Below are positions 28,003 to 59,455 of a stretch of DNA of 64,000 bases, one piece after another. Origin of the DNA: an uncultured delta proteobacterium (GTDB lineage Bacteria > Myxococcota_A > Polyangia > Fen-1088). The stretch is from assembly GCA_963737265.1 (NCBI GenBank), contig CAVTRY010000022.1, positions 352,001 through 416,000 on the forward strand. Reading direction: 5' to 3'. Numbering within the stretch: position 1 is the first letter of the stretch; the number at the start of each line of letters is the position of its first letter. The notes under the pieces were generated by a model, which was not told the origin of the DNA, searched no databases, and saw nothing but the letters and a program-made list of their open reading frames with translations. A program made the translations under genes and the position numbers.

Positions 28003-28798
28003 CGTGTGGGCGAGCGAGTCTGCCTGCCTCACCAAAGTTGCGAAGGGCATCCAACTTAATGTGCCAGACACGGACTCCGCAGCCAACCAGTTCGGCGCGC
28101 CACAAAGCGCAGAAACCCCGCGGCATATTTCCGTTGTTGTTGGCCCGTGTTGCTCCTCGCGACGTGCTATTTGGTAAAGGCGCCGATGGGCCAGATCCAT
28201 GATCTGCGCCGCAGTCGACATCTCCTGAATTAGCCCAAGCATCGAGGGATTCTGCCGGATGTCGATCTGACTATGTTCAAGCCGCTTCAGAGTCCCCACA
28301 GACAACGTAATGGCCCAATAGTTGCCGCTGACTTGGCTTTGCGCTGACGCGGAATACGGATATCAACCTCGGACGGATTTGCCGGGCGCCGAGTCAATTA
28401 TGCAACTTTACCCCGTGACGACAACTGCCCGGATTCCGTCAGCGCCCTTCGTCCGCCACATCCTACCTACGTTGCGGGTGCGCATGTAACTGAAAACAGG
28501 TCCCGTTGCCTGCATTTTAACGTGCCTATTCGTGGCACTCGAATTGCGATATGAATGTCCGATATTCGATTCGCTCCACCAGGGGGTGCTGACTTGCTCG
28601 GAGAACTGATAAACATTCCGACTGACACGCTCATCCACATGCTCTTTGTAATCCTCGCGGGCGAGGTCATTCTCACGGCGAAAGATGTAGCGGAAATTGT
28701 GGAGATTCAGTGTGAGTTGCAAAGAAGAGACGAGGGGAGCCACTGGAACTGGCGCGCTGTTAACTAAGACGCACCGAACAGCGAAGGAAGGACTGAAA

Positions 28799-31255
28799 AT
28801 GACATTACTCGCAGATACGCAAGACTTGGCAGAGCCATTGAGGCCCGAGGGTACAGCGCGGTCTACTGTCCCGGGAGCGCCGCTAAGTGTCGATGAACTG
28901 AACAGGCTCGACGCCTTTTGGCGTGCGTGCAAGTACCTGGCTCTAGGAATGATCTATCTTCAGGCAAACCCACTGTTACGGGAATCCCTGAAACCAAAGC
29001 ACATTAAGAGTCGGCTCTTGGGCCATTGGGGCGCCAGCCCCGGTCTGGCCTTTATCTACATCCATCTGAGTCGCCTTATAAAAAAACATGACCTTGAGAT
29101 GATGTTTCTCGCGGGGCCGGGCCACGGCGCGCCAGGCGTTTTGGCACCTGTGTATCTAGAGGGCACGTACACTGAGATCTACCCAGAAAAAACCCAGGAC
29201 GAAAAAGGCCTCCAGGAATTCTTCAAGCAATTCTCATTCCCGGGAGGAATCGGAAGTCACTGCACCCCGGAAACCCCAGGCTCGATTCACGAAGGAGGCG
29301 AACTGGGCTATGTCCTCTCGCATGCCTGTGGAGCTGCTTTCGACAATCCTGACCTGATCGTCGCAGCTGTAGTGGGTGACGGTGAAGCTGAAACTGGCCC
29401 ATTGGCGACCTCCTGGCACATTAGCAAGTTTCTAAATCCAATCCGCGATGGGGCTGTCCTACCTATACTTCACCTTAACGGCTACAAGATCAACAACCCG
29501 ACTCTGCTGGCAAGAATTACCCACGAAGAGTTGGAAAGCTTGTTACGCGGATACGGCTGGAATCCGTACTTTGTGGAAGGATCCGAACCTGACAGCATGC
29601 ATCAGGCAATGGCCGCGACACTTCAGCGATGCACGGCCGAGATCAAGTCACATCAGGAAGAATGCCGCAAGAGTGGGACCGCGATCCGGCCACGCTGGCC
29701 CATGGTGGTGTTGCGATCGCCAAAGGGATGGGGTGCGCCGACGGAGGTGGACGGACATCGGATTGAAGGCTCTTGGCGCTCACACCAGGTTCCGGTGACA
29801 GACGTCAAGAGCAACCCCGAACATCTGCGCATTCTGGAGGACTGGATGCGGTCATTCAAGCCCGAGGAACTCTTCGACGAGAACGGAAGGCTGCGACCGG
29901 AGCTCGCCGAAATTGCACCATCCGGCTCGCGCCGCATGAGCGCCAGTCCTCACGCGAATGGAGAGCTCAGAGAAAAACTACTGTTGCCCGACTTTCGTGA
30001 CTACGCCGTTAGAATCGAGAGCCCAGGGAGTCTGGAAGTCGAAAATGTGCCACCGCTGGGTACCTTCCTGCGGGACGTCATGAAATCGAACATGAGCAGT
30101 TTTCGGGTGTTTGCGCCTGATGAGAACACTTCCAACAAGCTGGATGCGGTCTATCAGGCTTCGAAGAAATTTTGGATTGCGGGAACTCTGCCCGAGGACA
30201 GTGATGGCACCGAACTGGCCTCCGACGGACGCGTTATTGAAATGCTTAGCGAGCACACTATGGAGGGCATGCTCGAGGGCTATTTGCTGACCGGTCGTAA
30301 CGGCTTTCTCTCATCCTATGAAGCCTTTGTTCATGTAATCGACTCGATGTTTAATCAGCACGCGAAATGGTTATCCATCTGCAATCAGTTATCTTGGCGC
30401 CGAAAGATCGCGTCTCTCAATCTTCTTATTACCTCAACGGTGTGGCGTCAGGATCACAATGGCTTCACGCACCAGGACCCCGGGTTCCTCGACGTAGTAC
30501 TCAACAAGAGTGCGGCAGTTACCCGTATCTACCTACCGCCGGATGCGAATTGTTTACTGTCCGTAGCAGACCACTGCCTGCGATCTGAAAACTACGTCAA
30601 TGTTATTGTCTCCGACAAGCAGCGGCATCTGCAATATCTGAATATTGACGCTGCCATTACTCACTGCACAAAAGGCATAGGCATCTGGAAGTGGGCCAGC
30701 AATGATGCAGATCAGGATCCTGACGTTGTCATTGCTGCAGCGGGCGACATTCCTACACAAGAAGCGCTGGCCGCCACAGTACTGCTCAGAGAACGGTTCC
30801 CCGACCTCAAGATCCGCTTTGTCAACGTCGTCGACTTGTTCAAACTACAACCGAACACTGAACATCCGCATGGCCTGACGGATGCAGACTTTGACTCTCT
30901 CTTCACCACCGACAAGCCGATCATCTTTAACTTCCATGGCTACCCCTGGCTGATTCACCGCCTCGCTTACCGTCGCACAAATCATCGGAACCTGCATGTG
31001 CGCGGCTACAAAGAGAAGGGAAACATTAATACCCCCATGGAGCTGGCGATTAACAATCAAACAGACCGCTTCAGTCTCGCCATCGACGCCATTGACCGCG
31101 TGGGAAAACTGCAGCGGGTAGGAGCGCATGCTAAAGAGGAATTTCGCGATTGCCAGCTTGCGTGCAGGCGCCACGCTTACGAGTACGGAGTCGACAGCCC
31201 CGAGATTGGCGGTTGGAAGTGGCCTTCGGACAAGGATGAAGTGATGGGCTCGTAG
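28799..31255 (+). CDS. xfp: D-xylulose 5-phosphate/D-fructose 6-phosphate phosphoketolase
   Basis: [30 protein letters not shown] and [14 protein letters not shown] motifs. Confidence 0.96.
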
Positions 31256-32702: not shown

Positions 32703-32780
32703 CGAACCGCACAACCTCGGATTCAATGCTGGCGAGCGGGAGATTGGCCGAGGACAAACTCCTGCCGCTAGGTGCAGCTA

Positions 32781-33697
32781 ATGGCGTTCCCAAGACTGAA
32801 GCAGCTCACAGCCCCGGCGACCGGCCGTAGCTTTCCAATAGGGGCTACGCTGATAAACGGCGGTACCAATTTCTCAATCTTCTCCCGGACTGCCGCCAGC
32901 ATTGAGCTGCTGCTTTTTGATAACGTGGATGACGCTCGCCCTTCCTGTGTGATTCCCATCGATCCCTTAGCGAACCGCACGTACCATTACTGGCACGTAT
33001 TCGTGCCCGGGGTGAAAGCGGGTCAGGTCTACGGATTCCGGGCCTTCGGGCCGTTCCAGCCAGATCGGGGTCTCAGGTTCGATCCATCCAAGCTACTGCT
33101 CGACCCGTATGCTCGTGCTATCGTGGTCCCCAAAAACTATTCCCGTGAGGCAGCCCGTCGGGAAGGCGACAACCTAGCGACGGCCATGAAGAGCGTGGTC
33201 ACGGACCCGCACGCGTATGACTGGGAAGGTGACGTGCCCCTGAAGCGGCCGTGGTCGCGCAGTATCATTTACGAGATGCATGTGCGCGGTTTTACCGCAC
33301 ATCCCAGCTCCGGTCTGCCAGAATCGAAACGTGGTACGTACGCCGCATTAGTCGACAAGATCCCCTACCTTCGGCAATTGGGGGTTACCGCGGTCGAGCT
33401 GCTTCCCGTCTTTCAGTTTGATCCCCAAGACGCGCCTCGGGGCCGAAGAAACTACTGGGGTTATTCCCCGGTTGCATTTTTTGCACCGCACCAGGCATAC
33501 AGCTCGCGTCAGGAACGGCTGGGCGCGGTTGATGAGTTTCGAGACATGGTGAAGGCGCTGCACCGAGCCGGCATCGAAGTGATTCTGGACGTAGTCTTTA
33601 ATCACACGGCGGAAGGCGGACAGGACGGCCCAACACAATGCTTCCGCGGACTTGATAATCCGACTTACTACCTCCTGGGGGCAGACCAATCACTTTA
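32781..33697 (+). pseudogene. glgX: glycogen debranching enzyme, N-terminal part only (joined in frame to a VirB4 fragment)
   Basis: CBM48 (WHVFVPG), YEMHVRGFT, NYWGYSP and DVVFNHTAEG; GH13 sequence stops after FRGLDNPTYYLL, before the catalytic residues. Confidence 0.9.
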
Positions 33698-35315
33698 CCG
33701 GGTAAGCGGCATTCACTCCTACTACGCCAGCGATGATGACAGGAATCGGACGAAGCTCGTGCTGGAGGCCCTGATCCGCTCCTTACCGGAGAGATCCATG
33801 CGCCTGCAAGTGCGATTTGAGATTGCCGAAGGAGCTGACGACCTGATCGCACGCTACAACCGGGAGCAACAGAATCCCAGCGCGGTTCTTCAGGCAGTAG
33901 ATCGCGAACAATCCGACCTCTGGCTGAAGAAAAACGCAGAGGGCTATTACCTGCAACAGCTGCTGCACTTCTACTTCATCTGGGACCCGCGCATCCACCA
34001 CCAGTCGCCGGAGGTGGAGTGGAAAAAGAAGATGCGCAGTTCGAGCTTCAGCATGTCGGCCAACAAGTGCATCGAGCGCAGCCGGAGAGAGCATGAGGAC
34101 CTGGTCGCCGAGTTCAACAGTCTGATGTCCGGAGTCGAGGCCTCGCTGCAGGCCACCGGCATGAAGATCGAGCGGCTCACGCAAAACGACATTTTCCTGG
34201 AGGTCAAGCGGGCCCTCAATCCGCTCGTGAACGACAAACGGCCGTTTCTTCCTCCGAGAGAATCGCTGGTGTACGAGAGTGCGCGAAGCCAGATGGCCAG
34301 CGTCAACATCGAGGATGAACTCGATGAGCACGTCAAGATCGGCGGACTACTGTACTCGTTCATCAGCCTGAAAGACCTTCCCGACGCCACCTTCCCTGGA
34401 GTGTTGCGGGAACTGGTGGTGATGGACTTCCCGATCATCATCAACGCCGAAGTTGTACTTCCCGATCAGACGAAGGCGGTGAAGCAGTACAAGAGCCGGC
34501 TGCGCAAAATGACTGCGGCACAGAAGGACATCCACGGAGGGTTCCGGCTCAATGTGGACGCCCAGGTGGCGGAGCATCAACTGATCAAGGTCCTGCAGGA
34601 GTTGATTTCGAGCTCGCTGAAATCCTGCCAGCTCAGCCTGACCATTGCCGTCCGCACCTCACGTGCAGCCCGCAATCGCTTTGAGGCGGAGGAAGCGGAA
34701 CGCACTCTTGCCGATCGCCGGCAGCGGGTGTTGCACGCCATCGGGCGCATGAACGGCGCACGCGGGATTCCGGAGACATTGGCGCAAAAGCGCTTCTTCT
34801 TTTCCAGTCTCCCGGGACTCGGTGAGATCAACAAGCGGGAAAAGGATGTTCTCACCCTTCACGCAGCCGACCTGCTGCCGGTGGAGATGCCATGGAAAGG
34901 AACGCCCAATTCTCCGTTGATGCTGTTTGAAACTCCCTACCGCCAGCTCATACCGTTCTCGCCGTTCGATTCCGGGTTGGGTGACGCCAACATGCTCATC
35001 ATGGCGAAGAGCGGTGGAGGCAAGACGTTCCTCGCGCAGCTCAAGCTGTTGATGATGGCACGTGCCCGTCCGCTGGTGTCGATTCTGGAGCGCGGGGATT
35101 CTTACGAACCGCTGGTCGATCTGATGGGCGGCCGTGTGATCAATGTCGATCTGGATGGCAGAGAGACGCTGAATCCGTGGGACCTCCCGGAAGGCGAGAC
35201 GGGTCCCAGCAATGAGAAGACGGCATTTCTGAAGAACCTGACGCGGCACATGCTCGGCGACAGTCATAACTCGGACACGTCGCTGCTGGACAACGTGCTC
35301 ACCGATGCGATTACG
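33697..35315 (+). pseudogene. virB4: VirB4/TraC-like type IV secretion ATPase, internal fragment
   Basis: 'FFFSSLPG', 'NMLIMAKSGGGKT' Walker A, 'ILERGDSYEPLVDLMGG' and 'LNPWDL'; both ends missing. Confidence 0.85.
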
Positions 35316-35457
35316 CAATCCTGCAATCGCTGATGTCCGCGCTTCAGATCACCGATCCGATGCAGTTTAACGGATCGTGGCTGCAGGCGTTTGTCGGCTC
35401 CAGCCAGATGATCGTGATGAGTGTCGCCAGCGTGCTGTTGGCGATCATGGTTGCCGG
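35312..35457 (+). pseudogene. hydrophobic fragment, probably VirB6/TrbL-like
   Basis: A frame absent from the ORF track reads YAILQSLMSALQITDPMQFNGSWLQAFVGSSQMIVMSVASVLLAIMVAG (TM-loop-TM); lies after virB4. Confidence 0.45.
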
Positions 35458-36077
35458 CTCTCAACCGATGGTGTCGCTGCCGTTGCCCAGGCGCAACTGC
35501 AGCTGAGAGGCACACTGGTCCTTCATTCGGAAACCGCTGCAAGAAACGGCGGGGATTTTGACTTCGATATGGTGTGCCTGGTCGAGGACAACCGTTTTCC
35601 ACGGTTCGTCGCAGACCGGTGCGCCTACGAGGAACAACACACCGCCACTAAGAAGAAGAACCCTAAACCTCCAGTCCCTGGTGGAACCTTCCGCAAGTTT
35701 CAATGCAGGCCCGCGGAAATCAGATCGGCGCCATAACCGATTTGAAGACCTCGTGCCTGGCAAAAGGAAGGCCAGACCTGGCGCGGGAATTGGTGGACCA
35801 GCTTCAGAATGCGCTGGATCAACTGAAGCACGGTACCCAACCCGATCAGGAGGTCATCCGCAATATCCGCAACGATGTGCCCACAGCGCCTTGGCTGAAG
35901 CTGAAACAGAAACGACGGATCGAAGACATGGACGAGCACATTGAAGTCGATGCCAACGATAAGGTCGGAAGACTCTACAACTTCACGCGCAAGGAACTGG
36001 GGCGGTTCTTCGGTAGTGCCGCCACGGCGCGCTTGAGCGATTTCCGGGGAGTAATCGGAGGTCAGAGCTTTAACTAA
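35458..36077 (+). CDS. fragment of a putative single-subunit two-barrel RNA polymerase (RdRP/QDE-1/YonO-like), frameshift near 35675
   Basis: GTLVLH...NGGDFDFDMVCLV (motif at 35548-35568), then GNQIGAITD...LARELVDQLQNALDQLKHG...APWL...KVGRLY. Confidence 0.65.
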
Positions 36078-36086
36078 CCATAACCG

Positions 36087-36116
36087 TCCAGGAGACTTCG
36101 GAGGGAGTCTCCTGGA
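36087..36116. terminator. perfect 11-bp stem-loop, possible terminator or regulatory hairpin
   Basis: TCCAGGAGACT-tcggaggg-AGTCTCCTGGA; no U-tract. Confidence 0.45.
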
Positions 36117-36154
36117 TGTACAACATTCGGACTGAAGGAAGGAACAAACAAGCC

Positions 36155-37034
36155 ATGAGACGCGTTGTGTTGATGTTCGCAGTGCTGGCCGCGGTACTTG
36201 TCCCGGCTGTTGCGCAGAAGATTGAGACCGAAACCAGTGACCGCACCCGCATCGTCCATCTGAAGACGGCGTTGAACCACCTCACGGTCATCGAGGTCGG
36301 CGAACCGGTCGTGCAGGTGGCAGCCGGGAGCCCATCATTCAAGGTCGAGTGGCGGGAAAACAAGGTATTTGTCCAGCCCACCGAAGCCGATGCCGCAACC
36401 AACTTGTTCATCTGGACGGCCAATCAGCGCCTGAACTACGAACTGGAGCCCGCCGACTCGGTGACAAACATGGACTTTGCCGTCGACCAGGCGCCTGTGC
36501 ACCTGGAGCCGGTTAAGCCGACGGCTGCGACTGCGCCTGTCCCGGTTTCGCCATCGATAACCGAACTGCTGCTCACGGGAAAGCCAATTCGACTTCTGCC
36601 CTCAAAGCAGCGCGCCTCGAAGCCGGTCGAGGTGTGGATCAGCGACCTGTACGAAAAAGATGGCCGCCTGTTGGTTCGCTACACCGTCTGCAACCACGGC
36701 ACCGAACCATACGCCATTGACACCCCGCTGGTGTACCAGTTGGACGGGGTGCGGTCTGCCCAGTCCTTGTACGGCCTACAGAACTCGCAGTTGGGCGACG
36801 AGCAAGCGGCCAAGCTCAAGATCAAGCAAGAGACGCCGGTGAAGAGTGCTGGATGGTCAGACCCAGACCGCGCGGATTGCTCCGGGCGAAGAAGCGGTTG
36901 GCGTGGTGGCCCTGGAGATGGCGTCAGGCACACAACCCACAGTCCTGCGCTTCCAGTTCTCCAGCTCCAAGCAATCGGAAGACGGATTGAGCAATGGCCC
37001 ACAGACTCAGATCGCCGCATTTCTGGTGCGATAA
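36155..37034 (+). CDS. TrbG/VirB9/TraK-like conjugative outer-membrane core protein, frameshift near 36845
   Basis: Signal peptide; 'LTVIEVGEPV...G...F.VE...NKVFVQP...TNLFIWT...YEL' beta-sandwich; continuation 36846-37034. Confidence 0.7.
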
Positions 37035-37061
37035 GCGCCGAAGCGCAACCAGAGGCAAAAC

Positions 37062-37286
37062 ATGGCAGATCCATTCACCGTCAAGCCGGTTTACAACGCG
37101 CTGAGCCAATACATCCGCAATCGAGCGGACATTGGTGCGGGCAGGGCCATGCGTGACGGTGTGCTGGAACCTTCCAACCCGTTTGAACGAAAAGCCGCGA
37201 GGCCACCCAGACGCTGGTTTGTGTTGTTGTCTCTCCTCGCCGCGATGGTGTTTGGCTTCTTTGTTTACTTTAACAACCTCCTGTAA
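37062..37286 (+). CDS. small protein with C-terminal TM helix
   Basis: GAGG RBS and a 74-aa ORF in the transfer operon. Confidence 0.55.
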   Translation: MADPFTVKPVYNALSQYIRNRADIGAGRAMRDGVLEPSNPFERKAARPPRRWFVLLSLLAAMVFGFFVYFNNLL

Positions 37287-37554: not shown

Positions 37555-39339
37555 ATGATGCGCGAATCGTACGCCAACCGGCAGCAGAACCCGCCAGTCC
37601 TGGAGAGCATGGAGATCGTGGTCGCCCTCGTTCTGATGGCGGTGTGCTGGTTCTCCTGGTACGTAGCCCACGAGCGTTACAACTTGACGAACCGCCAGAT
37701 TGCCGAGGTGGCATGCTACCTGGCTCTCGGCGGCTTGGCCATCGCCGGCTCCGCCATATTGATTGCCACCGCGCGCTCCCGCCGGGAGAAGCAATGGCCC
37801 CATCCACCGATGGTTGTCTCCCGCAAACGGGACGAGCAGTTTACGTCCGAAGCCTGGAAGCAAGACGCCGTGGTCCTCGGCTACGACATCCACGGCAAGC
37901 CTTGGTACTGGCCGGACAGAGTGCGCGTCATGCAGGGCATCGTGCTGGGCATGACCGGGTCCGGCAAGACCACGCTTCTGAAGAACATCATTACGCAGGA
38001 CATGGCGCGCGTGGTCGGCACTCCGAAGGATCCACACCGGTTGCCGATGGTGATCTTTGATGGCAAGGGGGATCTCGAGTTCTTTTACGATCTTCTGCCG
38101 CACGTCCACCGAGCCGGACGGCTGCATCAACTGCGAGTCCTGAATCCCGCGCGCCCGGATATTTCCGTCCGGTACAACCCGTTCTACTGCAACGACGAGG
38201 ACTACATGGCCGTCGTCAACATGGTCTTCGGCTCCTTCAACCTGCACGACGAGTTCTTTGCCAAGCACCAGTTGAACTATCTGGCCGACATCGTTCGCGT
38301 GCTGGTGTACACCGGCCGGAAGATCAACGTCTATGACGTGCTGGTCGCGGCCATTGACGAACAGGTGCTGCGCGAACAGGTCGAAAAGGCACGTCAGCGA
38401 CTGGAACACGACCCATCCATTCCCGTGCAGCGCCGCCTGAACTTCGAGATGTCGGTTAGAAACCTCTACCAGTCGTTTGCAGACCGCGAGCGTGTGCCAA
38501 AGATCCAGGGCTTGGTCAACGAGTGTATGACGCTTCTCGACGATGAACTGAGCGTGATCACCGGCCCGTACGAGGATCTGTTGTCGCTGGATGAAGTGAT
38601 CGAGCAGGAGCTGATCCTGTTCGTCACCTTGAACGTCAACAAGAACACCGAGCCGGTACGGGCTCTGGGGAAGATGCTGTTGCAAAACCTGCAACTGGTC
38701 GTTGGCAAACGGTACGAGAGTGAGGAACAGCGGCGGCGCACCAACCGCCCGATGTTCAGCGTCGTGTTGGACGAGTTTGCGCCGTTCGGATACCGGAACT
38801 TCGCACAGATCCTGCAGACCGCCCGCGGCACTCACACGGCGTTTCTGTTCTCAATGCAAAGCCTGCCGCAACTGATGCAGGTCGGCCGGGGCTTTAAGGA
38901 AGACGTAACCTCGGCGCCGAACACGACTCTGACGTTGCGCACCCGCGACGAGGAAACGGCCCGCTATTTCTTGCGGGCCTCGGCCGAGCACACCGTCACC
39001 CGGCGCAGCGTGTCGATGCACCGCCAGCGACTATTTGGTTACGAGAAGTACGAGGCAACCGACCGGGCCACGGAGAGCGAAGACCGTGAGACCCGCGCAC
39101 TCGATGAGCACATCAAGAATCTTCCCAAGGGACAGATGGAGATTCTGATGACGGATGACACGCGCGGCACATTGCACCAGTTGTTGCACGTCCGTCCGCC
39201 GCAGGATGTCACCTTCCCGAACTTCGAGCCGAAGTTGTACCCGCGGCTGCTGGAATCCGTGGAGGAATCAGCTGGCGCGAACCTGCGGTTCAAAACGCCT
39301 GAGTTGGCGGCAACCACCCGTTTTGCCCGTCGCGGATAA
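37555..39339 (+). CDS. virD4: VirD4/TraD type IV coupling protein
   Basis: Two N-terminal TM helices, GMTGSGKT Walker A, FDGKGD, YNP, VVLDEF Walker B and MQSLPQL. Confidence 0.92.
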   Translation: MMRESYANRQQNPPVLESMEIVVALVLMAVCWFSWYVAHERYNLTNRQIAEVACYLALGGLAIAGSAILIATARSRREKQWPHPPMVVSRKRDEQFTSEAWKQDAVVLGYDIHGKPWYWPDRVRVMQGIVLGMTGSGKTTLLKNIITQDMARVVGTPKDPHRLPMVIFDGKGDLEFFYDLLPHVHRAGRLHQLRVLNPARPDISVRYNPFYCNDEDYMAVVNMVFGSFNLHDEFFAKHQLNYLADIVRVLVYTGRKINVYDVLVAAIDEQVLREQVEKARQRLEHDPSIPVQRRLNFEMSVRNLYQSFADRERVPKIQGLVNECMTLLDDELSVITGPYEDLLSLDEVIEQELILFVTLNVNKNTEPVRALGKMLLQNLQLVVGKRYESEEQRRRTNRPMFSVVLDEFAPFGYRNFAQILQTARGTHTAFLFSMQSLPQLMQVGRGFKEDVTSAPNTTLTLRTRDEETARYFLRASAEHTVTRRSVSMHRQRLFGYEKYEATDRATESEDRETRALDEHIKNLPKGQMEILMTDDTRGTLHQLLHVRPPQDVTFPNFEPKLYPRLLESVEESAGANLRFKTPELAATTRFARRG

Positions 39340-40724: not shown

Positions 40725-41492
40725 GTGCGCTACCCGAAAGACAGTCTGCACTTGGGCCGCGAACATGATTATCCTTTACTGCGGCAGCTTGCGCACTCCC
40801 GCTTTGCCACGCGCAGCCAACTGTTCGAATACATGCAGCTACGCGGTTGTAGCGAATGCCGCCGGTCATTCAACTGGAGAACCCAAAGGCTCATTCAGCA
40901 TGACCTTGTCAGCAGACGGACGGTGCCCGCGTTGGGAGCGGAGTACGTCTACGCGCTGACGACGCATGGCGCCGTAACTCTGGAAGAGATCGAGCAGCGC
41001 TTCTCGCTCTCGCTGAGTGCGGATCGCAACCAGGGTGAAGACCTGAGCGTGATCCACTCGGTCGAACTCAACAACATCGAACTGCGAGTGGCAAAAGCCG
41101 GGCTGTTGGCACGATGGATCCCGGAAGCAGAGATCCGCTCGGAGAACGCACTGACAAACCTGGCCTACAGGAAAGAATACGACGCCGTTGTCACGTTGCG
41201 GCTCGGCAGCCGCGAGGTGACATTTGCGTTGGAGTACGAACGGACGCCCAAGTCTCGAAGTAAATATGACAAGATCGCGGAGGATATGTGCCGGGAAGAA
41301 AACGTGGATCACTTCCTGTACTTGACTGCCAACGAGCATTTGCTGAGGTTCGCGTCCTGGTCCTTCCGAGATCTTCAGCGGCGTGTCTATTTCGGGCTTG
41401 TCACAGACTGGCACCGGCAGTTGCTCGACATGCCAGCCTTCAGTTGGAAGGCGAAACGGTATGTTCCACTCAAGACTTTGCTTGCTCAATGA
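40725..41492 (+). CDS. replication-relaxation family protein (Replic_Relax, MOB-L-type relaxase)
   Basis: N-terminal wHTH (FATRSQL...YVYALT..G), HSVELN, and YDAVV...ALEYERTPK PD-(D/E)xK-like core; downstream of virD4. Confidence 0.82.
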   Translation: MRYPKDSLHLGREHDYPLLRQLAHSRFATRSQLFEYMQLRGCSECRRSFNWRTQRLIQHDLVSRRTVPALGAEYVYALTTHGAVTLEEIEQRFSLSLSADRNQGEDLSVIHSVELNNIELRVAKAGLLARWIPEAEIRSENALTNLAYRKEYDAVVTLRLGSREVTFALEYERTPKSRSKYDKIAEDMCREENVDHFLYLTANEHLLRFASWSFRDLQRRVYFGLVTDWHRQLLDMPAFSWKAKRYVPLKTLLAQ

Positions 41493-42611: not shown

Positions 42612-45454
42612 TCACCACGGTGACAGTGTCGGAACCGGCGGGCACTTTTCAACTTGAAGATATTTCTTACAGCCTTCGTCGGAGGGATGGGCTGTGACAC
42701 GCTGTTGGGCAAGTGCCATCAAGTCGCGAATGTCCATGGCATAAATTTGCACCAATCCGTCCCACCCCGCTGTCGATAGTCGCCTGCTGTCCGGGCTCCA
42801 GGCCACGTCCGTAACGGCATCGCTGTGTCCGTACAACGTCAGCACTTCCTGGCCACTGGCGGCATCCCACACGTTGGCCGTATTGTCTCCGCTTGTCGTC
42901 GCCAGACGCTTCCCGTTTGGGCTCCAGGCCACGCTCTTACCGGCATCGTTGTGTCCGTACAACGTCAGCACTTCCTGGCCACTGGCGGTAACCCACACCT
43001 TGGCTGTATGGTCCACACTGCCCGTCGCCAGGCGCTTGCCGTCCGGGCTCCAAGTCACGCCGCCACGAGAGTCGCTCTCGCCGTGCAGGGCCATCAGTTC
43101 CCGACCGCTGGCCGCATCCCACACCTTGGCCGTGCCGTCAAAACTCCCAGTGGCGACCCGCTTGCCGTCCGGGCTCCAGGCCGCACCCTGAACACCCCTG
43201 CTATGGCCGCGCAAAGTCAGCTGTTCCTTGCCACTGGTGGCATCCCACACCTTGGCCGCACCGTCCCAACTCCACGTCGCTAGCCGCTGTCCGTCTGGGC
43301 TCCAAGCTATGCCCTCAACCGGTTTGTCGTGGCCGCGCCAGGTCAGCAGTTTCCGGCCGCTCACGGCATCCCACACGGTGTTCGTGCCGTCCCCACTCCC
43401 CATGGCCAGCCGCTTGCCGTCCGGACTCCAGGTCACGCTGTAAACACCTTTGCCATGGCCGAGCAAGGTCAGCTGTTCCTGGCCGCTGGCGGCATTCCAA
43501 ATCTTGGCTGTGCCATCGTTGCTCGCCGTCGCCAGCCGCTTGCCGTCCGGGCTCCAGACCACGCCGTTAACCCAACCGTCATGGCCACGCAAGGTCAGCT
43601 GTTCCTGAGTGGCGGCATCCCACACCTTGGCCGTCTTGTCATTGCTCGCCGTTGCCAAGCCGCTTGCCGTCCGGGCTCCAAGCTACGCTCATAACAGCAG
43701 CGCCATGGCCGCGCAGGGTGAGCAGTTCCCGCCCGCTGACTGCATCCCAAAGCTTCGCCGTATTGTCAAAACTTGCCGTGGCCAGCCGCTTGCCGTCCGG
43801 GCTCCAAACCACGCTCCAAAACTGAATCGCCATGGCCGCGCAAGGTCAACAGTTCCCGTCCACTGTCTGCATCCCATACCTTCGCCGTCTTGTCAAAACT
43901 TGCCGTTGCCAGCCGCTTGCCGTCCGGGCTCCAAGACATGCTGTAAACAGCTTCGCCATGGCCACGCAAGGCTTGCAGTTCGTGGCCGCTGACAGCATCC
44001 CACACCTGGGCTATGCCTTCCACACTCCCCGTCGCCAGACGCTTGCCATCCGGACTCCAAGCCATGCTGCCAACGGAATTGCCACGATCGCGCAGGACTA
44101 TCCGTTCCTGTCCGCTTGCCGCGTCCCACACCCTAGCCGTACCGTCCCAGCTCCCCGTCGCCAGACGGTTACTGTCTGGGCTCCAGGCCACGATACGAAC
44201 AGCTTTGACATGGCCGCGCAAGGTCAGCAGTTCCTGCCCGCTGTCCACATCCCACACCTCTGCCTCACCGTCCGCACTCCCCGTCGCCAACTTAATGCCA
44301 TCGGGACTCCAAGCCATGCTGTCGACACGACCTCCACGAACGTGTAAGGTGAGCAGTTCGCGGCCGTTGGCCGCATCCCACACTTTGGCGGTCTTGTCCC
44401 CACTCCTCGTCGCCAGACGCTTGCCATCCGGGCTCCAGGCCACGCCGTCAACACCTTTGGAATGGCCGCGTAAGGTCAACTGTTCCTGGCCGCTAGCGGC
44501 GTCCCACACCTTGGCCGTTTTGTCCGCACTCCCCGTCGCCAGCCACTTGCCGTCCGGGCTCCAGGCCACGCTGTCAACAGAATCGCCATGGCCGCGCAAG
44601 GTCAGCCTCACATGGGACGCCATGATGGCATGATGTAATTCGTCTTCGGCTTCGGGAAGAACGCTGTGACCCCACGGCCAGGTTGCGCCCACTGCATGGG
44701 CCGCTAACAAGATCGAAAGCTCGGGATCAGTGTCCTCATTTGAGATGGAGCTTGCGACCAACTGCCGAGCTCGGGCCCTAGCAGTCTGCCAGAAAGCGTA
44801 GATAGCCAGACCCACCGCAATCAGAAACGCGAGGGACACGGCTGCAATAACGATCCGTTGCAGCTTGGTCGCGGCCTGGCGGCTGGCCAGGATGTACTGC
44901 GACTGTAGCGTCGTCGGCGACGGTTCTTTTCCTGAACTCTTGGCGACCCATCGCTCCGCGTCACGGAGGTCCTTGCCCCGGAGCACGAGGCTGCTGTCTT
45001 TGCCCCCTCTTTCCCACTCCTTGGCGCGCATCAGCAGGCGAGTATGCGCCTGCGTCCAAGCCAGGTCGGTATCCAGCGCTATGATTAGCGCCGCGAAGTT
45101 TTCGTCGAATCGAACATCGCCATCAAAGTCGATGCGCTGAAACTTGCCGAGCGTTTCGGGGATGGCGTCATCTGGAACCGCGCGATAGAAGATCGGAACC
45201 ATGCGCTTGTGGGTGGCCACTGCATGATCGATCTCTTTCCTGCAGTTGGCGGAAGCTACCGATTCCGGACTGATGATGAACAGGAAATTGTCGGCAGCTT
45301 CGATGTTGGCGAAGATTTCTTGCTGCCACTCTGCCGTTAGCGGAATGTCTTTCCAATCGACCCAGGCCTCGCGCTCCTGCGCTGCAAGAGCTTCGCCCAG
45401 CTTGCTCACGAAGTCTTTATCTTTCCGAGAGTACGAGATGAATACCTGTGCCAT
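42612..45454 (-). CDS. TIR domain - helical linker - TM - 15x WD40 repeat protein, frameshifts near 43815 and 43658
   Basis: VFISYSRKD...WVD...CRKEID TIR; hydrophobic segment; 15 'GH...[21 protein letters not shown]' repeats across three frames. Confidence 0.9.
42745..44600 (-). repeat. about 126-bp tandem coding repeat (WD40 units)
   Basis: Recurrent GCTTGCCGTCCGGGCTCCA and CATCCCACACCTTGGC at about 126-bp spacing. Confidence 0.85.
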
Positions 45455-46304: not shown

Positions 46305-46415
46305 CAGAAAAAATATTCCGGGTTATCTAACGACACCCACATCCGAAAGCCGGATGGGGAAATGGCGAACACGAGCCCCGAATTCGCGAATTTGTCAGAA
46401 GGAGGTGACGGGTTA

Positions 46416-47390
46416 ATGGAACCGACAATCACGGCAACCCGGCAGGTCGTCGAGGATTACCAAAGGCTGTTCGTGAACCGCCGAGCCTACACGATGCAGT
46501 CCATGCGGCCGCACCCGGAAACAGGGCGGCATTACTACTTTCGGCCAAGCAAGAAAGGGACAGACATCCCCCAGATGCTGACCGAGGGAACCATCCGACA
46601 ACACCTGGAAGGCAAAATCACGGTCGGCCTGTATGCCATCAACCCGTCAACCCAGCGCTGTAAATGGGTCGCCATCGACGCTGACTACAAGAACTCCATG
46701 GAGGACTTGCTCAAGCTCCAGTACCACTTGACACAGGACAAGGTGGAACCAGCGCTGGAAATGAGCAAGCGAGGAGGGCATCTTTGGATCTTCCTGGCAA
46801 CGCCCCTGCTGGCCAAGGAGTGCCGAATCTACATCCATGATCTTGCCCTGAGGTTGGGGGTGCCGGTGAAAGCGTCGGGCTTGGCGGAAGGCATCGAGGT
46901 GTTTCCGAAGCACGACGCCATCGGCGCCGGAGAGTTTGGCAACGCCATTCGCGGTCCCCTGGGAATTCACCGTGGTGCTAACCGCCGATTTTGGTTCTAC
47001 GGCGCCGATTACACGCTGGAGGACCAGATCGCATACCTCAAACGTCTGCGAAAGGTCACCGAGGAAGAACTGCGGAGGTTCATCGCTGGGAAGGAAAGGC
47101 CGGAGCCGGATTTCTCGCCGCGTCCAGGAAGGGTCACTTCAACGCTACGAAAAACTGGGAACGGACGATCAGAATTCCGCATTTTGGCACACGTGGGTAC
47201 CGTGCGGAAAGTCGGCCGGAATTACGTCGCGCGATGCCCATCCTGCGCGGACTGTGGCCACGACCGGAGCGGCGACAACCTGGCCATCCTGATCGAAGAT
47301 CCGCGCTTTTACAAATGCTGGGCTGGATGCACCAAGGAGATGATTCGGGCCGCCCTCGGCTGCCCGATTCGTGTGCGGCATTCCGCCTGA
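46416..47390 (+). CDS. archaeo-eukaryotic primase (TOTE-type AEP domain) with C-terminal zinc finger
   Basis: WVAIDAD (DxD), EMSKRGGHLWIF (SxxxxH), IEVFPK and GNAIRGPLG; CPSC...CWAGC; GGAGG RBS. Confidence 0.82.
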   Translation: MEPTITATRQVVEDYQRLFVNRRAYTMQSMRPHPETGRHYYFRPSKKGTDIPQMLTEGTIRQHLEGKITVGLYAINPSTQRCKWVAIDADYKNSMEDLLKLQYHLTQDKVEPALEMSKRGGHLWIFLATPLLAKECRIYIHDLALRLGVPVKASGLAEGIEVFPKHDAIGAGEFGNAIRGPLGIHRGANRRFWFYGADYTLEDQIAYLKRLRKVTEEELRRFIAGKERPEPDFSPRPGRVTSTLRKTGNGRSEFRILAHVGTVRKVGRNYVARCPSCADCGHDRSGDNLAILIEDPRFYKCWAGCTKEMIRAALGCPIRVRHSA

Positions 47391-51247: not shown

Positions 51248-52300
51248 ATGCCAACTAACGACCCAACAACATCTCCCTCGGGGCTGGATGTGACCGAGCT
51301 CCTTTCGGAGCTCGAAGTCCCGTTTTCACCCGACCAAGTCCGGTGGCGGGTCACCAACACAACCAACGACAAGAAACGCGGTCAGATCGTGTCGTATGCC
51401 GATTCCCGCGCCTACACCGACCGGCTGAACTCGCTGTTCACGCCGCAGGGCTGGACCCGCGAGTACAAGGTCGAGACGATGACTAATATCACGCGCGTGA
51501 AGAAGGGCGAGAGCATCGTCTCGGGCAAGGTGCTGGTCACCTGCACGGTCACGATCCTTGGCATTGGCTCGCATTCAGGCACCGGCGAAGAATGGGCCGA
51601 CGATGACAACGGAATGACGTCAGCCGACGCGCAGGCATTCAAGCGGGCATGCTCTTGCCTTGGGCTTGGCCGCTACTTCTACGACATACCGCCAATCTGG
51701 GTCGATCTCGACCAGAACCGCCAGCCTGTCAGAACACCGGTGTTATCGGCTTGGGCGCTGCCGGAGAACTGGCGCAAGGGGATGCGGCCGCCGGGCAAGA
51801 ATCGGAACGGAAATGCCAACGCACCGAACCATGGCATTGGTTCGAACGGGGGCAGCAACGGCAACCATGGCCAGGCTACGAAAAGCCAAACTCGGCCAAC
51901 CGATGGCGGCGGGAACGGTCATGCCCAAACCGCAAAGTCTAACGGGTCGGCGGCGGCTGGCTCCGGCGACGATCTGGACGCGCGCATTCTGGGATTGGAG
52001 AAGGCCGTCGGTACGGCGCTATTCAGAGGCATTCTGCGGGAGTACGGGCGCGCCAACCAGCCTAAGCTAATCCGCGACGCAGCCATCAAAGGGAAGGTCC
52101 TTCAGATGCTGGAGTCCGCAACGCGCGGCCTGGACCGTTTGGAAGCTGTTACCCAACGGCTCGACCCGAACACGGTGAAGGGGCTGCTCGATAAGCTGCA
52201 AGTCCCGCCGCTGAACGAGATCGCGGACATCAAAACCCTGCAAAACGTTGTCTTCGGCCTCGAAGAACTCGCTGGTTCCGACCAGCACCACGCAGCCTAA
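51248..52300 (+). CDS. Rad52/Rad22 (Sak-like) single-strand annealing protein
   Basis: LEVPF...V.WR...Y.D.R...DRLN......GW and SADAQAFKRA....GLGRYFY. Confidence 0.88.
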   Translation: MPTNDPTTSPSGLDVTELLSELEVPFSPDQVRWRVTNTTNDKKRGQIVSYADSRAYTDRLNSLFTPQGWTREYKVETMTNITRVKKGESIVSGKVLVTCTVTILGIGSHSGTGEEWADDDNGMTSADAQAFKRACSCLGLGRYFYDIPPIWVDLDQNRQPVRTPVLSAWALPENWRKGMRPPGKNRNGNANAPNHGIGSNGGSNGNHGQATKSQTRPTDGGGNGHAQTAKSNGSAAAGSGDDLDARILGLEKAVGTALFRGILREYGRANQPKLIRDAAIKGKVLQMLESATRGLDRLEAVTQRLDPNTVKGLLDKLQVPPLNEIADIKTLQNVVFGLEELAGSDQHHAA

Positions 52301-52422
52301 TCACCACCACCGCCACCACGAATGCGAGGGCACAGGGATACGTGTGCCCTTCGCTCGTTGAACACAGCCAGAAATGGCGTCCATACCAAAAAACTCCACC
52401 ACAAACATGCGGAGGCGGAAAC

Positions 52423-53256
52423 GTGTCTCTGAAGGCAGTCGCACACATCTCTCAAGTCCGCGGCGGCTCGCAAGCGCGAATCATGCTGGCCGATGACGGC
52501 AGGAAATACGTGACCAAGCTCCAGGGCAACCCACAGTGCACAAGAGTGCTGGCCAATGACTACTTGGCCTGCAGACTGGCGCGGATGATCGGGCTCAGTG
52601 TGCCGGAGCCGGTCATTATTCTCGTGGACGAAGAGACGATCCTGGAGCAGCAAATTACCTTCACCCTGGCTGGCCGGGCGGTTGCTGCGCGTCCTGGGCT
52701 TCAATTTGGTTCTGCCCTGGTGTCCGGCGAGGTCTTGGACTGGCTGCCAGGGACAATGCTTGGGCGGGTCAGGAATTTGAGGGAGTTTGCCGGTATGCTG
52801 GCTTTCGACAAGTGGACCTGCAATGCCGATGGCCGGCAGGTCGTATTCCACAAGAAGCTGCAGCAGCGAAAATACGACGCGGCGTTCATCGACTTTGGAT
52901 ACTGCTTCAATGCGGGCGAGTGGAGTTTCCCCGACGCGCCGCTGCGGGGAGTGTACGGGCTCAATGATGTCTATGAGCGGATCGAATCGTGGGACGACTT
53001 TGCTCCGTGGTTGTCGCGGATCGAGCGATTCTCCGAGCGGCAACTGCACAGCATTGCGGACGAGATCCCATGCGAGTGGTATGGCGAACGCTCCGATCTG
53101 CAACGCTTGCTGGATTGCTTGTTGGAGCGACGCAGCATAGTCCGTCAGCTAATCGAAGACTTCAGGACTTCCAGCAGAAATCCTTTTCCGAATTGGACCA
53201 TGGAACGGTCGACACCTTGCGCGACCGAAGCCAGGGGAGAGCCGCTTGCGGTGTGA
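52423..53256 (+). CDS. HipA-like (HipA_2) kinase
   Basis: RGGSQA Gly loop, YVTK, LANDYLA..LA...GL.VP, FDKWTCNADGR and FIDFGYCF; GGAGG RBS and GTG start. Confidence 0.85.
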   Translation: MSLKAVAHISQVRGGSQARIMLADDGRKYVTKLQGNPQCTRVLANDYLACRLARMIGLSVPEPVIILVDEETILEQQITFTLAGRAVAARPGLQFGSALVSGEVLDWLPGTMLGRVRNLREFAGMLAFDKWTCNADGRQVVFHKKLQQRKYDAAFIDFGYCFNAGEWSFPDAPLRGVYGLNDVYERIESWDDFAPWLSRIERFSERQLHSIADEIPCEWYGERSDLQRLLDCLLERRSIVRQLIEDFRTSSRNPFPNWTMERSTPCATEARGEPLAV

Positions 53257-53309
53257 GATCCGCCCATCTTCAGCAAACCCTCGATAAGTCTCACGCCGTG
53301 GAGGAAGAA

Positions 53310-54360
53310 ATGAGAAATGCTGGTCGCCTCAAACTCGGTTACTATCCCTTGCCGGTAGAGGAAGCCCAAAACATCCGCGCCTTGCTGATGTCCTCTGCGC
53401 CGTATTCGGCCATCGATCCCTGCGTCGGTGACGGTACGGCACTTGCTTGAGATCACCAAGGATACCGGCGCCCACCTGGCCGGCATAGAACTCGATGCAG
53501 ACAGGGCTGCAGCAGCCGCCGAGAAGGGAATTGCGACCGTCCAAGGCAGCGCGTTTGAGTGCCGGGTGCTGGCGGAAACCTGTTCGCTCCTGTATCTGAA
53601 TCCGCCCTATGACAGCGAGTTTGGGCCGCACAGTAATAAGAGGATGGAGTTGGTGTTCCTGGAACACTGCTATCGCTGGGTGACCAGCGAGGGCGTGCTG
53701 GTGTTCGTTGTTCCGGCTCCCGCAGTCGGAACGTGCGCACGTCTATTGGCGAGCCAGTTCGATCGGCTTTGCGTCTTTCGACTCGAACATCCGGAGTCCG
53801 TCCGTTTTAACCAGGTCGTGGTGTTTGGCAGACGAAAGAAAGCGCATCTGCGCGGCGAACCCAAGGGAGCAGATGAGTTGCTCCGGATTGCATACAAGCC
53901 ACATCTGCTTCCTGTGCTCAACCAAGAGGTTGTGGAGCGGTATGCGATCCCACCGTCATCGCCCGCGACGATCACTTACACGGGACTACCTTTGGATGAG
54001 ATTGAGGATGCGCTGCAGCGCTCTGTGGCGATGCAGAATGCCCGCGGCATTCTCGTTCGCAAGCAGCAGAAAATGAGTGGCCGGCCAGTGACGCCGTTGC
54101 ACAAAGGCCACGTTGGCCTATTGGCCTGCAGCGGCATGCTCAACGGCTTCTTCGGGGAAGGCGAGACGCGCCACATCGCACACTGGCGATCGGTCAAGTA
54201 TGTGGACGAGTTCAACGAGGAAGGTGAAGCCGAGGGGGAGACCATCATTCGCAAACGCGAACGGTTCAGCCATGAGCTGACCCTCGCCTATGAGAGTGGC
54301 CAGATCATCGAGTTGAAGGAGACCAAGGAGGCCAAGCCCAGCGATGAAGAACGCTCATGA
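53310..54360 (+). CDS. DUF6094-type class I SAM-dependent DNA methyltransferase, frameshift near 53445
   Basis: KLGYYP, DPCVGDG, GIELD and LYLNPPY motifs. Confidence 0.82.
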
Positions 54361-54979
54361 ACGTTTCGGCAAACTCGTTTATCGGCGACGCACAGAAAAG
54401 ACGGCAACCAACCTTCGCGTCTTCCTGGATGCCTTTGTGGGTGAGGACCGAGGCAAAGCCCACTTGGTATCTGTGGTTGGCGGCGATGTTGAGATCGGCG
54501 CCTTGGCAGCCGCCTTTGCCAACGGTGACTCATTTACCGTGGTCGATCCTTACGGTGAAGAGAGTATCGTCTCGCTGGGAGAGAAGCCGCTGTGCTTCCG
54601 AGGTTCGATCGTGGTCCATGGCCGGAAGCGGCCGCTGAGACATCTTGTGAGCTGCTCGCAGGAATTGGCGGACGCCACCTCCGATGGGAAACTGCTTCTG
54701 ATCAGCGACGACCAATCCTTCATCTGGTCTTCGCTGGTGCGGCACTACGGCCTGCCCGCCACGCCGGAATGGGGGCCGTGGATGATCTCGCAGATGCACC
54801 AGCAAAAGCGTATTCAGCCACTTCCCGCGTTTGGATATGCCGGAGTGGCCGTCAAGGTCAAGCGAAAAGAGTTATTGGCGATGCTTCGGAAGGGGCTGCG
54901 CAGCAATCGGCTCGCGTTTCCTGCCCAAAATGGGGCCGTCGAATGGCCCGAAATCCAGCTCATCAAAAAGACTGCCTGA
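54344..54979 (+). CDS. hypothetical protein of the methylase operon
   Basis: 211-aa ORF overlapping the methylase stop codon. Confidence 0.65.
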   Translation: MKNAHERFGKLVYRRRTEKTATNLRVFLDAFVGEDRGKAHLVSVVGGDVEIGALAAAFANGDSFTVVDPYGEESIVSLGEKPLCFRGSIVVHGRKRPLRHLVSCSQELADATSDGKLLLISDDQSFIWSSLVRHYGLPATPEWGPWMISQMHQQKRIQPLPAFGYAGVAVKVKRKELLAMLRKGLRSNRLAFPAQNGAVEWPEIQLIKKTA

Positions 54980-55083
54980 TTCCCGCCGGAAAAGCCGCAT
55001 CCGCGGACGGCCGCGCAGAAACGACCACTCACGGATGTACTACACACCCAAATTCTGAAAGGTTCTGGGAGGACCTGCAATCC

Positions 55084-55626
55084 ATGGCGCTCTTACATAC
55101 AGGCGACCGCATTTGTGCGTCGTGCGGAGGCATGAACGGCCGTCACCGGGCAGCGTGCTCCGGCGACGAATCTATCGACGTACTCAACGTCTACAGCCGC
55201 CGGCAAGCGATAGACGATGGCATTCTGGTCGATTGCGACCAAGCTCCAATGGGCGAGATGCGCCGCCAGCTTATGAAGTGGCCGCTGGCGATGACCGCCA
55301 CCGCATTTCACCGATACGTGTGGCCAATAGATGAGGAGGCGAACCTGCCGCCAGGCCAGAGCTTGGAAGGCCGCTTCTGGGATGTGGTTTGGATGTTCCA
55401 TGCGGCCGCCAAGGGTGCAGTCCCGGCCCAGCGCATTGACCCGTGCAACCTGCTGTTCGACTTCTACTGCATCGTTGCTGATCCGGCACTGTCGTCAAAC
55501 GAGATGATCGACGCGACTGCCAGGAGCGGGCCAGAGAGGATGCGGCTCGTAACGCTGAAGGCGGTTTCTGGGCCTGGCGATGACGGCGAACCCGTGCTGA
55601 CGTTCATGTTGCCGGAGGAAGATTGA
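55084..55626 (+). CDS. DUF6573-like mobile-element protein
   Basis: YSRRQAIDDGILVD, GRFWDVVWM and LKAVSGPGDDGEPVLTFMLPEED. Confidence 0.7.
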   Translation: MALLHTGDRICASCGGMNGRHRAACSGDESIDVLNVYSRRQAIDDGILVDCDQAPMGEMRRQLMKWPLAMTATAFHRYVWPIDEEANLPPGQSLEGRFWDVVWMFHAAAKGAVPAQRIDPCNLLFDFYCIVADPALSSNEMIDATARSGPERMRLVTLKAVSGPGDDGEPVLTFMLPEED

Positions 55627-55690
55627 CGGGCACGAGTCGCTGAGTCGAAGTGGCGGAACTAGGGGGAGATCAAACTTAGACGAGACCCGT

Positions 55691-56545
55691 TTAGATCTTG
55701 TTGGGCCATATATCGCCATGATTCTTTCGTGCAGCCTCGTACCGACCTTCGTAACACAGCCCCATTGAATCTTTCAGCGTAACGGTAAGCGGGGCGTTTT
55801 GCGCGTCCGACATTCTTATTCCCTCCATCAAGAAATGCAGCCATCCTTCCTCTGGGATCGTGTATTGAAGGGACTTTCGTTCCAACTCGTTCAGAGCTTC
55901 TCGTCTCGACTCAGACTCAACATTTCCAAACGTGTCCAAAATTGGCTCGTCGTTGTCCGTGTGATATGTGCCGAGGCTGTTAGGCAACCACTTGGCCGAC
56001 TCAGTCTTGCCGTCCTTTGTTGAAACCTGAAGAGAGTAACCGTGGAGTCCTCTTTGGTGTAAGAAACTGCTAACAAGCCGCACAGAAACAAAAAAATCCA
56101 CTGCTAGGCTCGGATCGTCGATTGTCCCCTCGCGCATAGCTTTACTCAAGCCACCGACTAAACGTGGGTGTATGTGACAGTCTTTCACCCGCACGGCGAT
56201 GCATGCCTGCTCCTCTGCTGCTCGGAGTTCGGTATTTAGGTCGGCAATCGTCTTCTCAAGAGCTTCGCTCTCTTTTTGTCTCTTTCGGTCAAGATCTAGC
56301 GGCGAGCGAAAGAGGTAAAATACCGCAAACACGCCAAGCAGGCCTATGTAAGGCCACACAATTGCCCATAGGTTAGATCGTATTTCTCCCGGTTTAATAA
56401 CCCCGTATCGAATCTGGAAGAACAGGATTCCGCCGGACAGCACAAGGCCGATCACTTGCGCACGTCCCGCGCCAACAAGATCGCGCCACCACTGCCGCAC
56501 CCAACGAGTGTAGAAGTCTCTGCGGCTACTTTGTTTGCCTTCCAT
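55691..56545 (-). CDS. two-TM plus coiled-coil hypothetical cargo protein
   Basis: Reverse-strand, AT-richer ORF; start uncertain (ORF extends to 56665). Confidence 0.55.
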   Translation of the reverse strand: MEGKQSSRRDFYTRWVRQWWRDLVGAGRAQVIGLVLSGGILFFQIRYGVIKPGEIRSNLWAIVWPYIGLLGVFAVFYLFRSPLDLDRKRQKESEALEKTIADLNTELRAAEEQACIAVRVKDCHIHPRLVGGLSKAMREGTIDDPSLAVDFFVSVRLVSSFLHQRGLHGYSLQVSTKDGKTESAKWLPNSLGTYHTDNDEPILDTFGNVESESRREALNELERKSLQYTIPEEGWLHFLMEGIRMSDAQNAPLTVTLKDSMGLCYEGRYEAARKNHGDIWPNKI

Positions 56546-56674
56546 ATAACATGGGCCTCGGTAAGGATTGTACTTAATGGCAAAAGGACTGTGTTCCGCC
56601 TTGATACGTGAGCAGTTCAGGCAAAGTAGGGCGCTGCCGAACAGCGCGACGGAGACGGCGATCAATCTCCCAAA

Positions 56675-56914
56675 TCAGCCCTGGCGCGGCAGTTGCCGGA
56701 ATGACTCCAGATGCCAAAGGCCATCAGGCGTGGATGTCTCCCGGCGCAGGATGTAGAGATTGCCGTCATCTGCACGGACTTTGTAAAAGACATCTGACGG
56801 ACCGTACCACTGGTCGAGCACTTCCTCGACCATGTACTCATGCCCGTCCAGACGAAAGCGAAGAGGCCTTTCGTCCGCCGCCCGCCCGGAATAGCAATCC
56901 ACTTCCAGCTTCAT
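56675..56914 (-). CDS. small conserved protein (DUF6504-like)
   Basis: V.CYSG...ERP.RF......V.EVLDQWYGP...YKVRADDGN.YILR. Confidence 0.7.
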   Translation of the reverse strand: MKLEVDCYSGRAADERPLRFRLDGHEYMVEEVLDQWYGPSDVFYKVRADDGNLYILRRETSTPDGLWHLESFRQLPRQG

Positions 56915-56984
56915 CCCCACCATTCTGACGCATAGGCGATAGACCTGCCACATACGCGTTCACACCTCCTGTCCGGAGAACTCC

Positions 56985-59267: not shown

Positions 59268-59455
59268 CATGCCAACCGAAACCGCGGTTAAACGCCCATC
59301 GCGAACCTCTACTCATTGGCGGCTCGCTGTGCTTTCGCGATCACAATCTGTATACGGACTTGTCGGTATCGATCTCGTGGCAGCTGTCTCGAAAGACTTG
59401 CTAGCAAGCTCATCGGTTTAGATCAGGACTAGAATGTTGTCATCGCGGAGACATC

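Follow-up and report, generated by a model that had tools for sequence, protein, structure and literature searches.

Two short open reading frames, lying among conjugation genes in the 64,000-nucleotide stretch of DNA analysed here (the window), raise the question of whether a conjugative element in an uncultured delta proteobacterium encodes its own RNA polymerase. An earlier note had proposed that it does, and that the two frames together specify a minimal, QDE-1/YonO-like two-barrel enzyme. The homology stood up to analysis; the proposal that the element encodes a polymerase did not, as what is left is 22% of the gene, frameshifted and without the first barrel or the R-x-P part of the second, and the neighbouring VirB4 and TrbL-like genes are likewise fragments. 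Nor is 'minimal' apt for a family whose intact protein has 949 residues. Positions 35448-36072 are very probably a non-functional pseudogene fragment of a two-barrel polymerase gene in an eroded conjugative element.

The peptides quoted in the earlier note had been read correctly from the window, and translation showed that their two frames differ by -1. The note had joined the ORFs across one frameshift near 35675, and comparison with the intact element L020 gave the cause: a single base is absent after 35672, and restoring it brings both ORFs into one frame. The blastn alignment of 35448-36072 with L020 11482-12107 had 590 identical positions of 626 (94% DNA identity) and one gap. An extra G stands behind 35672 in contigs of all four soil-metagenome runs; the best sequencing run shares 0.30 of sampled words, and the contigs of the four runs represent related elements, not this organism. 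Both pieces are contiguous within full-length homologous proteins. In its own genome each is single-copy, the matches there to the 949-aa homologue P0001 being confined to residues 490-571 and 560-700. A Pfam search with both pieces at E ≤ 1 returned nothing beyond sub-threshold chance matches, for example CorA, with 16 bits where the cutoff is 27.

Of the 949 residues the remnant keeps ~491-699, followed by the last codon and the stop, ~210 residues in all. The L020 polymerase ORF ends at 12859, and in the window a 249-codon (747-bp) deletion joins codon 699 to the last codon in frame. The caveat that only about 200 residues survive, with junctions on the 5' and possibly the 3' side, was well placed; these junctions lie at 35448-35455 and 36072. 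Judged from the structural model of an intact relative, the surviving segment would comprise the final two second-barrel strands, together with the metal loop and the helical region that follows. Missing from the window copy are the first barrel (~residues 130-300 in the model), the strands bearing R460 and P462, and everything past residue 699. Having lost the first barrel, the R-x-P strand and the C-terminal third, the fragment cannot polymerise.

Table 1. Positions of the polymerase fragment and of the surrounding genes in the window
Feature	Position	Strand	Remarks
Phosphoketolase gene	28697-31255		
GlgX/isoamylase-type gene, N-terminal ~308 codons	32772-33695	+	CBM48 and start of alpha-amylase domain
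VirB4/TraC-type T4SS ATPase, internal fragment	33696-35312	+	N- and C-terminal parts gone; blastn to L020 2679-4300 and 22 further loci
144-bp piece of 420-aa multi-pass membrane (TrbL/VirB6-like) gene	35312-35455	+	blastn to L020 7552-7695, 90%
ORF, 5' piece of polymerase fragment	35377-35736	+	119 aa
Polymerase fragment	35448-36072	+	codons ~491-699 of 949; 1-nt deletion after 35672; blastn to L020 11482-12107
GGDFDFD codons (metal-binding Asp-triad loop)	35548-35568	+	D527, D529 and D531 in L020 numbering; read from sequence
ORF, 3' piece of polymerase fragment	35703-36077	+	124 aa
Last sense codon and TAA stop of polymerase gene	36072-36077	+	blastn: 36072 onward corresponds to L020 12854 onward
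VirB9/CagX-like gene	36116-37156	+	directly downstream, as in intact elements; Pfam CagX 3e-06, under cutoff
VirD4/TraG-type coupling protein	37555-39339	+	Pfam T4SS-DNA_transf 6.2e-14, TraG-D_C, TrwB_AAD_bind
Replic_Relax/MobC-type relaxase-like protein	40725-41492	+	Pfam Replic_Relax 3.5e-05, 24.4 bits against cutoff 25.3
TIR-WD40 protein and WD40-only protein	42612-45454	-	562 aa (TIR_2 1.4e-26) and 348 aa
Archaeo-eukaryotic primase (AEP) gene, same element	46362-47390	+	Pfam AEP-TOTE 5.7e-27
Rad52/22-family protein	51248-52300		
DUF6094 methyltransferase	53428-54360		
Helicase	56985-59267		
OLD-type AAA_15 plus Toprim nuclease	59456-60919		

Searches with the two pieces recovered a family whose full-length members span 808 to 1039 aa. 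The 5' piece had 357 matches at E ≤ 0.01 among 641 candidates, the best being 949-aa proteins (92% identity, E 8.8e-36), and the few best matches that came with a source name were labelled Terriglobales. An exhaustive HMMER search with the 3' piece gave 106 cluster representatives at E ≤ 1e-3 and 74 at ≤ 1e-10, with a 3' match at E 1.2e-77. When the 949-aa protein was used as query, none of 60 relatives' genomes carried the polymerase gene; the element is therefore sporadic.

In order to place the family structurally, we used an alignment of 39 homologues, 29-93% identical to L020, for an AlphaFold2 model of an intact relative (pLDDT 82.3, pTM 0.76). The modelled chain contains two double-psi beta-barrels and has a predicted overall RdRP architecture. 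In a Foldseek comparison with the PDB, every match listed at E ≤ 1e-3 was a two-barrel polymerase, including maize RDR2 (9e-15), Arabidopsis RDR2 (1.5e-13) and QDE-1 (~5e-13), as well as the phage proteins P32 gp64 and P74 gp62 (both ~5e-7) and crAss-like phi14:2 gp66 (1e-4). No YonO structure was among these matches. The RdRP profile PF05183 (gathering cutoff 23.8 bits) was reached by three of ten homologues, P0099 (28.4), P0108 (24.2) and P0111 (23.8), and missed by the other seven proteins tested, the closest homologues included; in the alignment, five of the 39 members matched it at E ≤ 0.01. The match always fell in the last 150 positions of the profile, and it is this segment that the window retains. 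Neighbours in the ESM Atlas include a cluster with PF05183 in 39% of its members. A sequence search of the PDB with the 39-sequence profile found no polymerase (best E 1.2), NCBIfam matched no family on the intact protein, and the family alignment, run against viral contigs, gave 225 pattern stretches, none encoding a relative. P0099, a metagenome protein of 1086 aa, has an N-terminal MoxR-like AAA+ ATPase (AAA 2.7e-08) fused to the polymerase.

The modelled fold and the partial profile matches support assignment of the fragment to a single-chain, two-barrel polymerase family resembling cellular RdRPs and phage RNA polymerases, and so bear out the QDE-1/YonO-like homology first suggested from the window. 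The checks that the earlier note had suggested, namely Foldseek and PF05183 comparisons and a search for two DPBB domains in full-length homologues, gave two-barrel polymerase folds, PF05183 on the minority of members given above, and two barrels in the modelled chain. The family is nonetheless distinct from QDE-1 and RDR2, to which it is only 12-15% identical; unlike them it is bacterial and is encoded in a T4SS operon without RNAi partners. It differs likewise from phage two-barrel RNA polymerases (SPbeta YonO; P32 gp64 and P74 gp62; P23-45 gp96; virion-packaged phi14:2 gp66) in that its setting is conjugation, not the virion. YonO-like proteins are recorded from Firmicutes, cyanobacteria and two Bacteroides in the available text of PMC2919709, which gives no conjugation context, and the available text of PMC5512222 does not mention two-barrel YonO-like proteins.

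Invariant in all 39 aligned homologues are G526, D527, D529, D531, R460, P462, K237, K241, T150, N151 and D152. According to PMC2919709, eight residues are common to all two-barrel RNA polymerases: the three Asp, one more Asp, an Arg, a Pro and two Lys, with Rpb1 R446/P448 and Rpb2 D837, K979 and K987 as reference residues. The invariant set appears to fit these eight. R460 and P462 lie in second-barrel strands, their equivalence to R446/P448 resting on order and spacing rather than superposition; D152, K237 and K241 lie in the first beta-rich domain, and their catalytic assignment follows from order and invariance, again not superposition.

The metal loop had been described as keeping all three catalytic Asp but with Phe for the usual Gly, and the GGDFDFD motif in the window agrees with this. 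Whether the DFDFD variant is conserved was another of the suggested checks; the Asp triad is, while position 530 is Phe in 30 homologues, Gly in seven and Tyr in two. The loop reads GGDFDFD in 27 of 28 genome loci and GGDYDFD in one, and in 80 metagenome loci the two forms number 62 and 18. A metagenome scan seeded with the seven canonical-Gly members still had Phe at 530 in 80 of the 80 loci kept. The metal loop of QDE-1 is DYDGD (PMC2919709), its Gly contrasting with the Phe or Tyr of 32 of the 39 family members. From the alignment, the canonical Gly persists in deeper branches (seven of 39), and Phe-for-Gly is the majority state of one clade, so that the loop of the remnant is no private oddity.

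The gene was located in 31 genome-contig loci, all from Acidobacteria MAGs, and in 80 metagenome loci; all 111 belong to one family of related elements and do not count as independent samples. By blastn the 31 genome loci form one collinear element. In locus L007 the gene order is VirB4 (893 aa; NCBIfam TraC-F-type 8e-48, VirB4_CagE 9e-47), genes of 285 and 272 aa, the 420-aa TrbL-like gene (weak NCBIfam TrbL_P and TraG matches, E 0.002-0.006), a 145-aa gene, the polymerase (949 aa), the VirB9-like gene (NCBIfam VirB9 3.7e-06), VirD4 (T4SS-DNA_transf 3.5e-14), a 271-aa gene, and Replic_Relax/MobC (NCBIfam MobC_subf 4e-08). This cluster thus holds a VirB4 ATPase, a coupling protein, a VirB9-like envelope component and a relaxase-type protein. 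Downstream of the polymerase, 30 of the 31 genome loci and all 68 assessable metagenome loci have the VirB9-like gene; for VirD4 the counts are 29 of 31 and 42 of 42. Upstream, VirB4 is found in all 22 genome loci with at least 6.1 kb of upstream flank and in all 33 assessable metagenome loci, and the TrbL-like gene in all 46 assessable metagenome loci. Where a genome locus lacks one of these neighbours, its flank is too short for a verdict. Wherever the flank of the 111 loci permits assessment, the polymerase therefore lies between the VirB4/TrbL-like and VirB9-like/VirD4 genes, which answers affirmatively the earlier note's question about adjacency to virB4, virB6 and virB9. The AEP primase is conserved downstream in 17 of the 31 genome loci, many of the others having too little flank to judge.

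Against this background the element in the window is visibly decayed. Blastn homology to the conjugative element begins at 33696, where an 853-aa chimeric ORF (32772-35333) fuses a glgX-type N-terminus (Pfam CBM_48 7.4e-13 and Alpha-amylase 4.7e-13 on residues 23-281) in frame to the VirB4 fragment, which has weak Pfam matches to TraC_F_IV, P-loop_TraG and CagE_TrbE_VirB. The window follows L020 to about 35312, corresponding to L020 4300 in mid-VirB4. Compared with L020 it then lacks ~3.25 kb (VirB4/TrbL-like), ~3.8 kb (TrbL-like/polymerase) and the in-frame 747 bp, and the 144-bp TrbL-like piece is the sole remainder of ~7.2 kb of the intact element. Four junctions fall within 2.4 kb of the assembly (33696, ~35312, 35448-35455 and 36072), and two of them preserve frame; the sequences at the 35312, 35448-35455 and 36072 joints overlap by 3, 8 and 1 bp.

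These observations suggest the following history. Intact Terriglobales conjugative elements carry the polymerase gene in the T4SS operon between the TrbL-like and VirB9-like genes; the element in the window has very probably been eroded by deletions, whose four or more junctions share 1-8 bp of microhomology. They join glgX to mid-VirB4, mid-VirB4 to the 144-bp TrbL-like piece, that piece to the middle of the polymerase gene, and polymerase codon 699 to its last codon, with the 1-nt deletion coming on top and the breakage probably recent. Because the T4SS is incomplete, the element can most likely no longer move. It shares with decayed ICE remnants its truncated T4SS genes, internal deletions at short microhomologies and retained cargo or defence-like genes; unusual here are only the four collinear junctions in 2.4 kb, two of them frame-preserving.

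Several features around the remnant deserve record. An empty-site comparison with same-genus genomes matched only the phosphoketolase gene, which is ~70% identical to the same-genus copies and has two further copies in its own genome (C22, C14); glgX, its neighbours and an adjoining 157-aa gene had no counterpart in the genus, which raises the possibility that the left flank, too, was acquired. The Replic_Relax protein matches its counterpart in locus L032 at 100% identity but those of the 25 other loci where it was found at only 33-48%, whereas the adjoining VirD4 stays 70-99% identical, so the relaxase module appears to be exchanged between elements. The TIR-WD40 region lies between the end of the closest relative's homology (42360) and the point where that of others resumes (~45680), and looks like a variable cargo slot, possibly defence-related. 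Further downstream, 51248-60919 holds a run of recombination and defence-like genes.

The mosaic might instead be an assembly artefact, the true genome having an intact element and polymerase, and the junctions arising from chimeric joins or collapsed reads. The assembly is in 25 contigs with 7.6% estimated contamination, and no window joint occurs in the contigs of the four soil-metagenome runs, although these derive from relatives' elements and the absence decides neither way; their contigs run past each junction, leaving loose ends at 33696, 35312, 35470 and 36072, and diverge on both sides at 33696/33698 and both ways at 36072. Frame errors are also common in sister assemblies. Of 28 genome loci, 22 have the polymerase gene as a single intact ORF, while in L019, L022, L025, L031, L032 and L033 it is split into two to four ORFs (VirB4 is also split in L032). 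The splits probably reflect single-base assembly errors, so that lone frameshifts in this family call for caution, and the single-base frameshift in the window could be one such error. An artefact on the scale of the whole mosaic nevertheless seems unlikely. Apart from the 144-bp piece, neither the 7.2 kb lost nor the 2.7 kb at the left of the element has a match anywhere else in the 99.5%-complete assembly, and the two-thirds of the polymerase gene that are missing are absent from it as well. Moreover, four junctions within so short a distance that share only 1-8 bp are unlike repeat-driven misassembly, and the flanking homology to L032 is continuous and collinear, at 96% over 6.3 kb.

That the fragment is still used, either as a small protein with the Asp loop and helical region or through programmed -1 frameshifting, is scarcely credible. 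Both ORFs remain open, and over the surviving segment dN/dS between the window and L020 is low, 0.079 (27 synonymous and 8 non-synonymous differences), within the 0.06-0.10 of intact copies against L020. These values indicate strong constraint on the family, but a low ratio is equally expected of a copy that broke recently relative to its divergence, as the window copy may have done. The upstream ORF starts within out-of-frame TrbL-like sequence, the first barrel and R460/P462 are missing, and no such fragment occurs in any other genome among the 60 relatives. Programmed frameshifting is rejected on account of the one continuous frame of intact homologues, since all 22 intact genome copies read through the equivalent of 35672 unshifted and the extra base is present in each metagenome contig set. 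The fragment is best regarded as a pseudogene.

For the intact family, the best-supported reading is an Asp-triad, two-metal RNA polymerase made together with a T4SS. QDE-1 copies ssDNA with de novo start (PMC9508822), and the phage relative YonO serves its element's own transcription (PMC5467207). Because of these precedents, RNA synthesis on the single-stranded DNA handled in conjugation would be the most plausible role. The presence of an AEP primase in the same elements argues against simple priming as the polymerase's only role. Tentatively, the intact family may be a new class of conjugation protein, a two-barrel RNA polymerase that is expressed together with the T4SS and may be exported through it. 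In the recipient it would synthesise RNA on the transferred strand, for promoter-independent early transcription or for priming; we consider this possible rather than probable. The plasmid primases RP4 TraC and R64 Sog travel with the transferred strand, and their fold is of the DnaG/Toprim type. They offer a functional analogy only, as enzymes of conjugative elements that make RNA on incoming ssDNA; their fold is unrelated to that of the polymerase family, the acidobacterial element has its own AEP primase, and export of the polymerase is hypothetical.

The intact 949-aa protein might, on the other hand, not act as an RNA polymerase in conjugation at all, but be a structural T4SS component that keeps the fold, or a two-barrel DNA polymerase or primase, as PolD is. 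The family is known from sequence and predicted structure, the Gly of its metal loop is replaced in most members, its gene sits among structural T4SS genes, and we found no report of activity for any member in the literature. We nonetheless regard this alternative as improbable, since invariance of the three Asp, R-x-P and two Lys under strong purifying selection would be surprising in a protein whose role is structural alone, the nearest folds belong to RNA-making enzymes and not to PolD, and a second primase is not obviously needed in an element that has one.

The preferred assignment, an RNA polymerase made with the T4SS, appears to have gone unremarked: in the openly accessible full-text literature we found no paper that connects two-barrel or RdRP-like polymerases with conjugative elements or T4SS. 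The window copy itself matters little, being a pseudogene in a decayed element, and as a remnant it records the loss of the polymerase gene together with the T4SS on element decay. The intact family gives the bacterial relatives of eukaryotic RNAi polymerases a concrete genomic setting, and the presence of a strongly conserved RdRP-fold polymerase in T4SS operons points to some conjugative elements supplying an RNA-making enzyme of their own. If the tentative role in the recipient is correct, the family would be to conjugation what virion-packaged RNA polymerases are to phages, its metal loop being altered to D-x-D-F-D.
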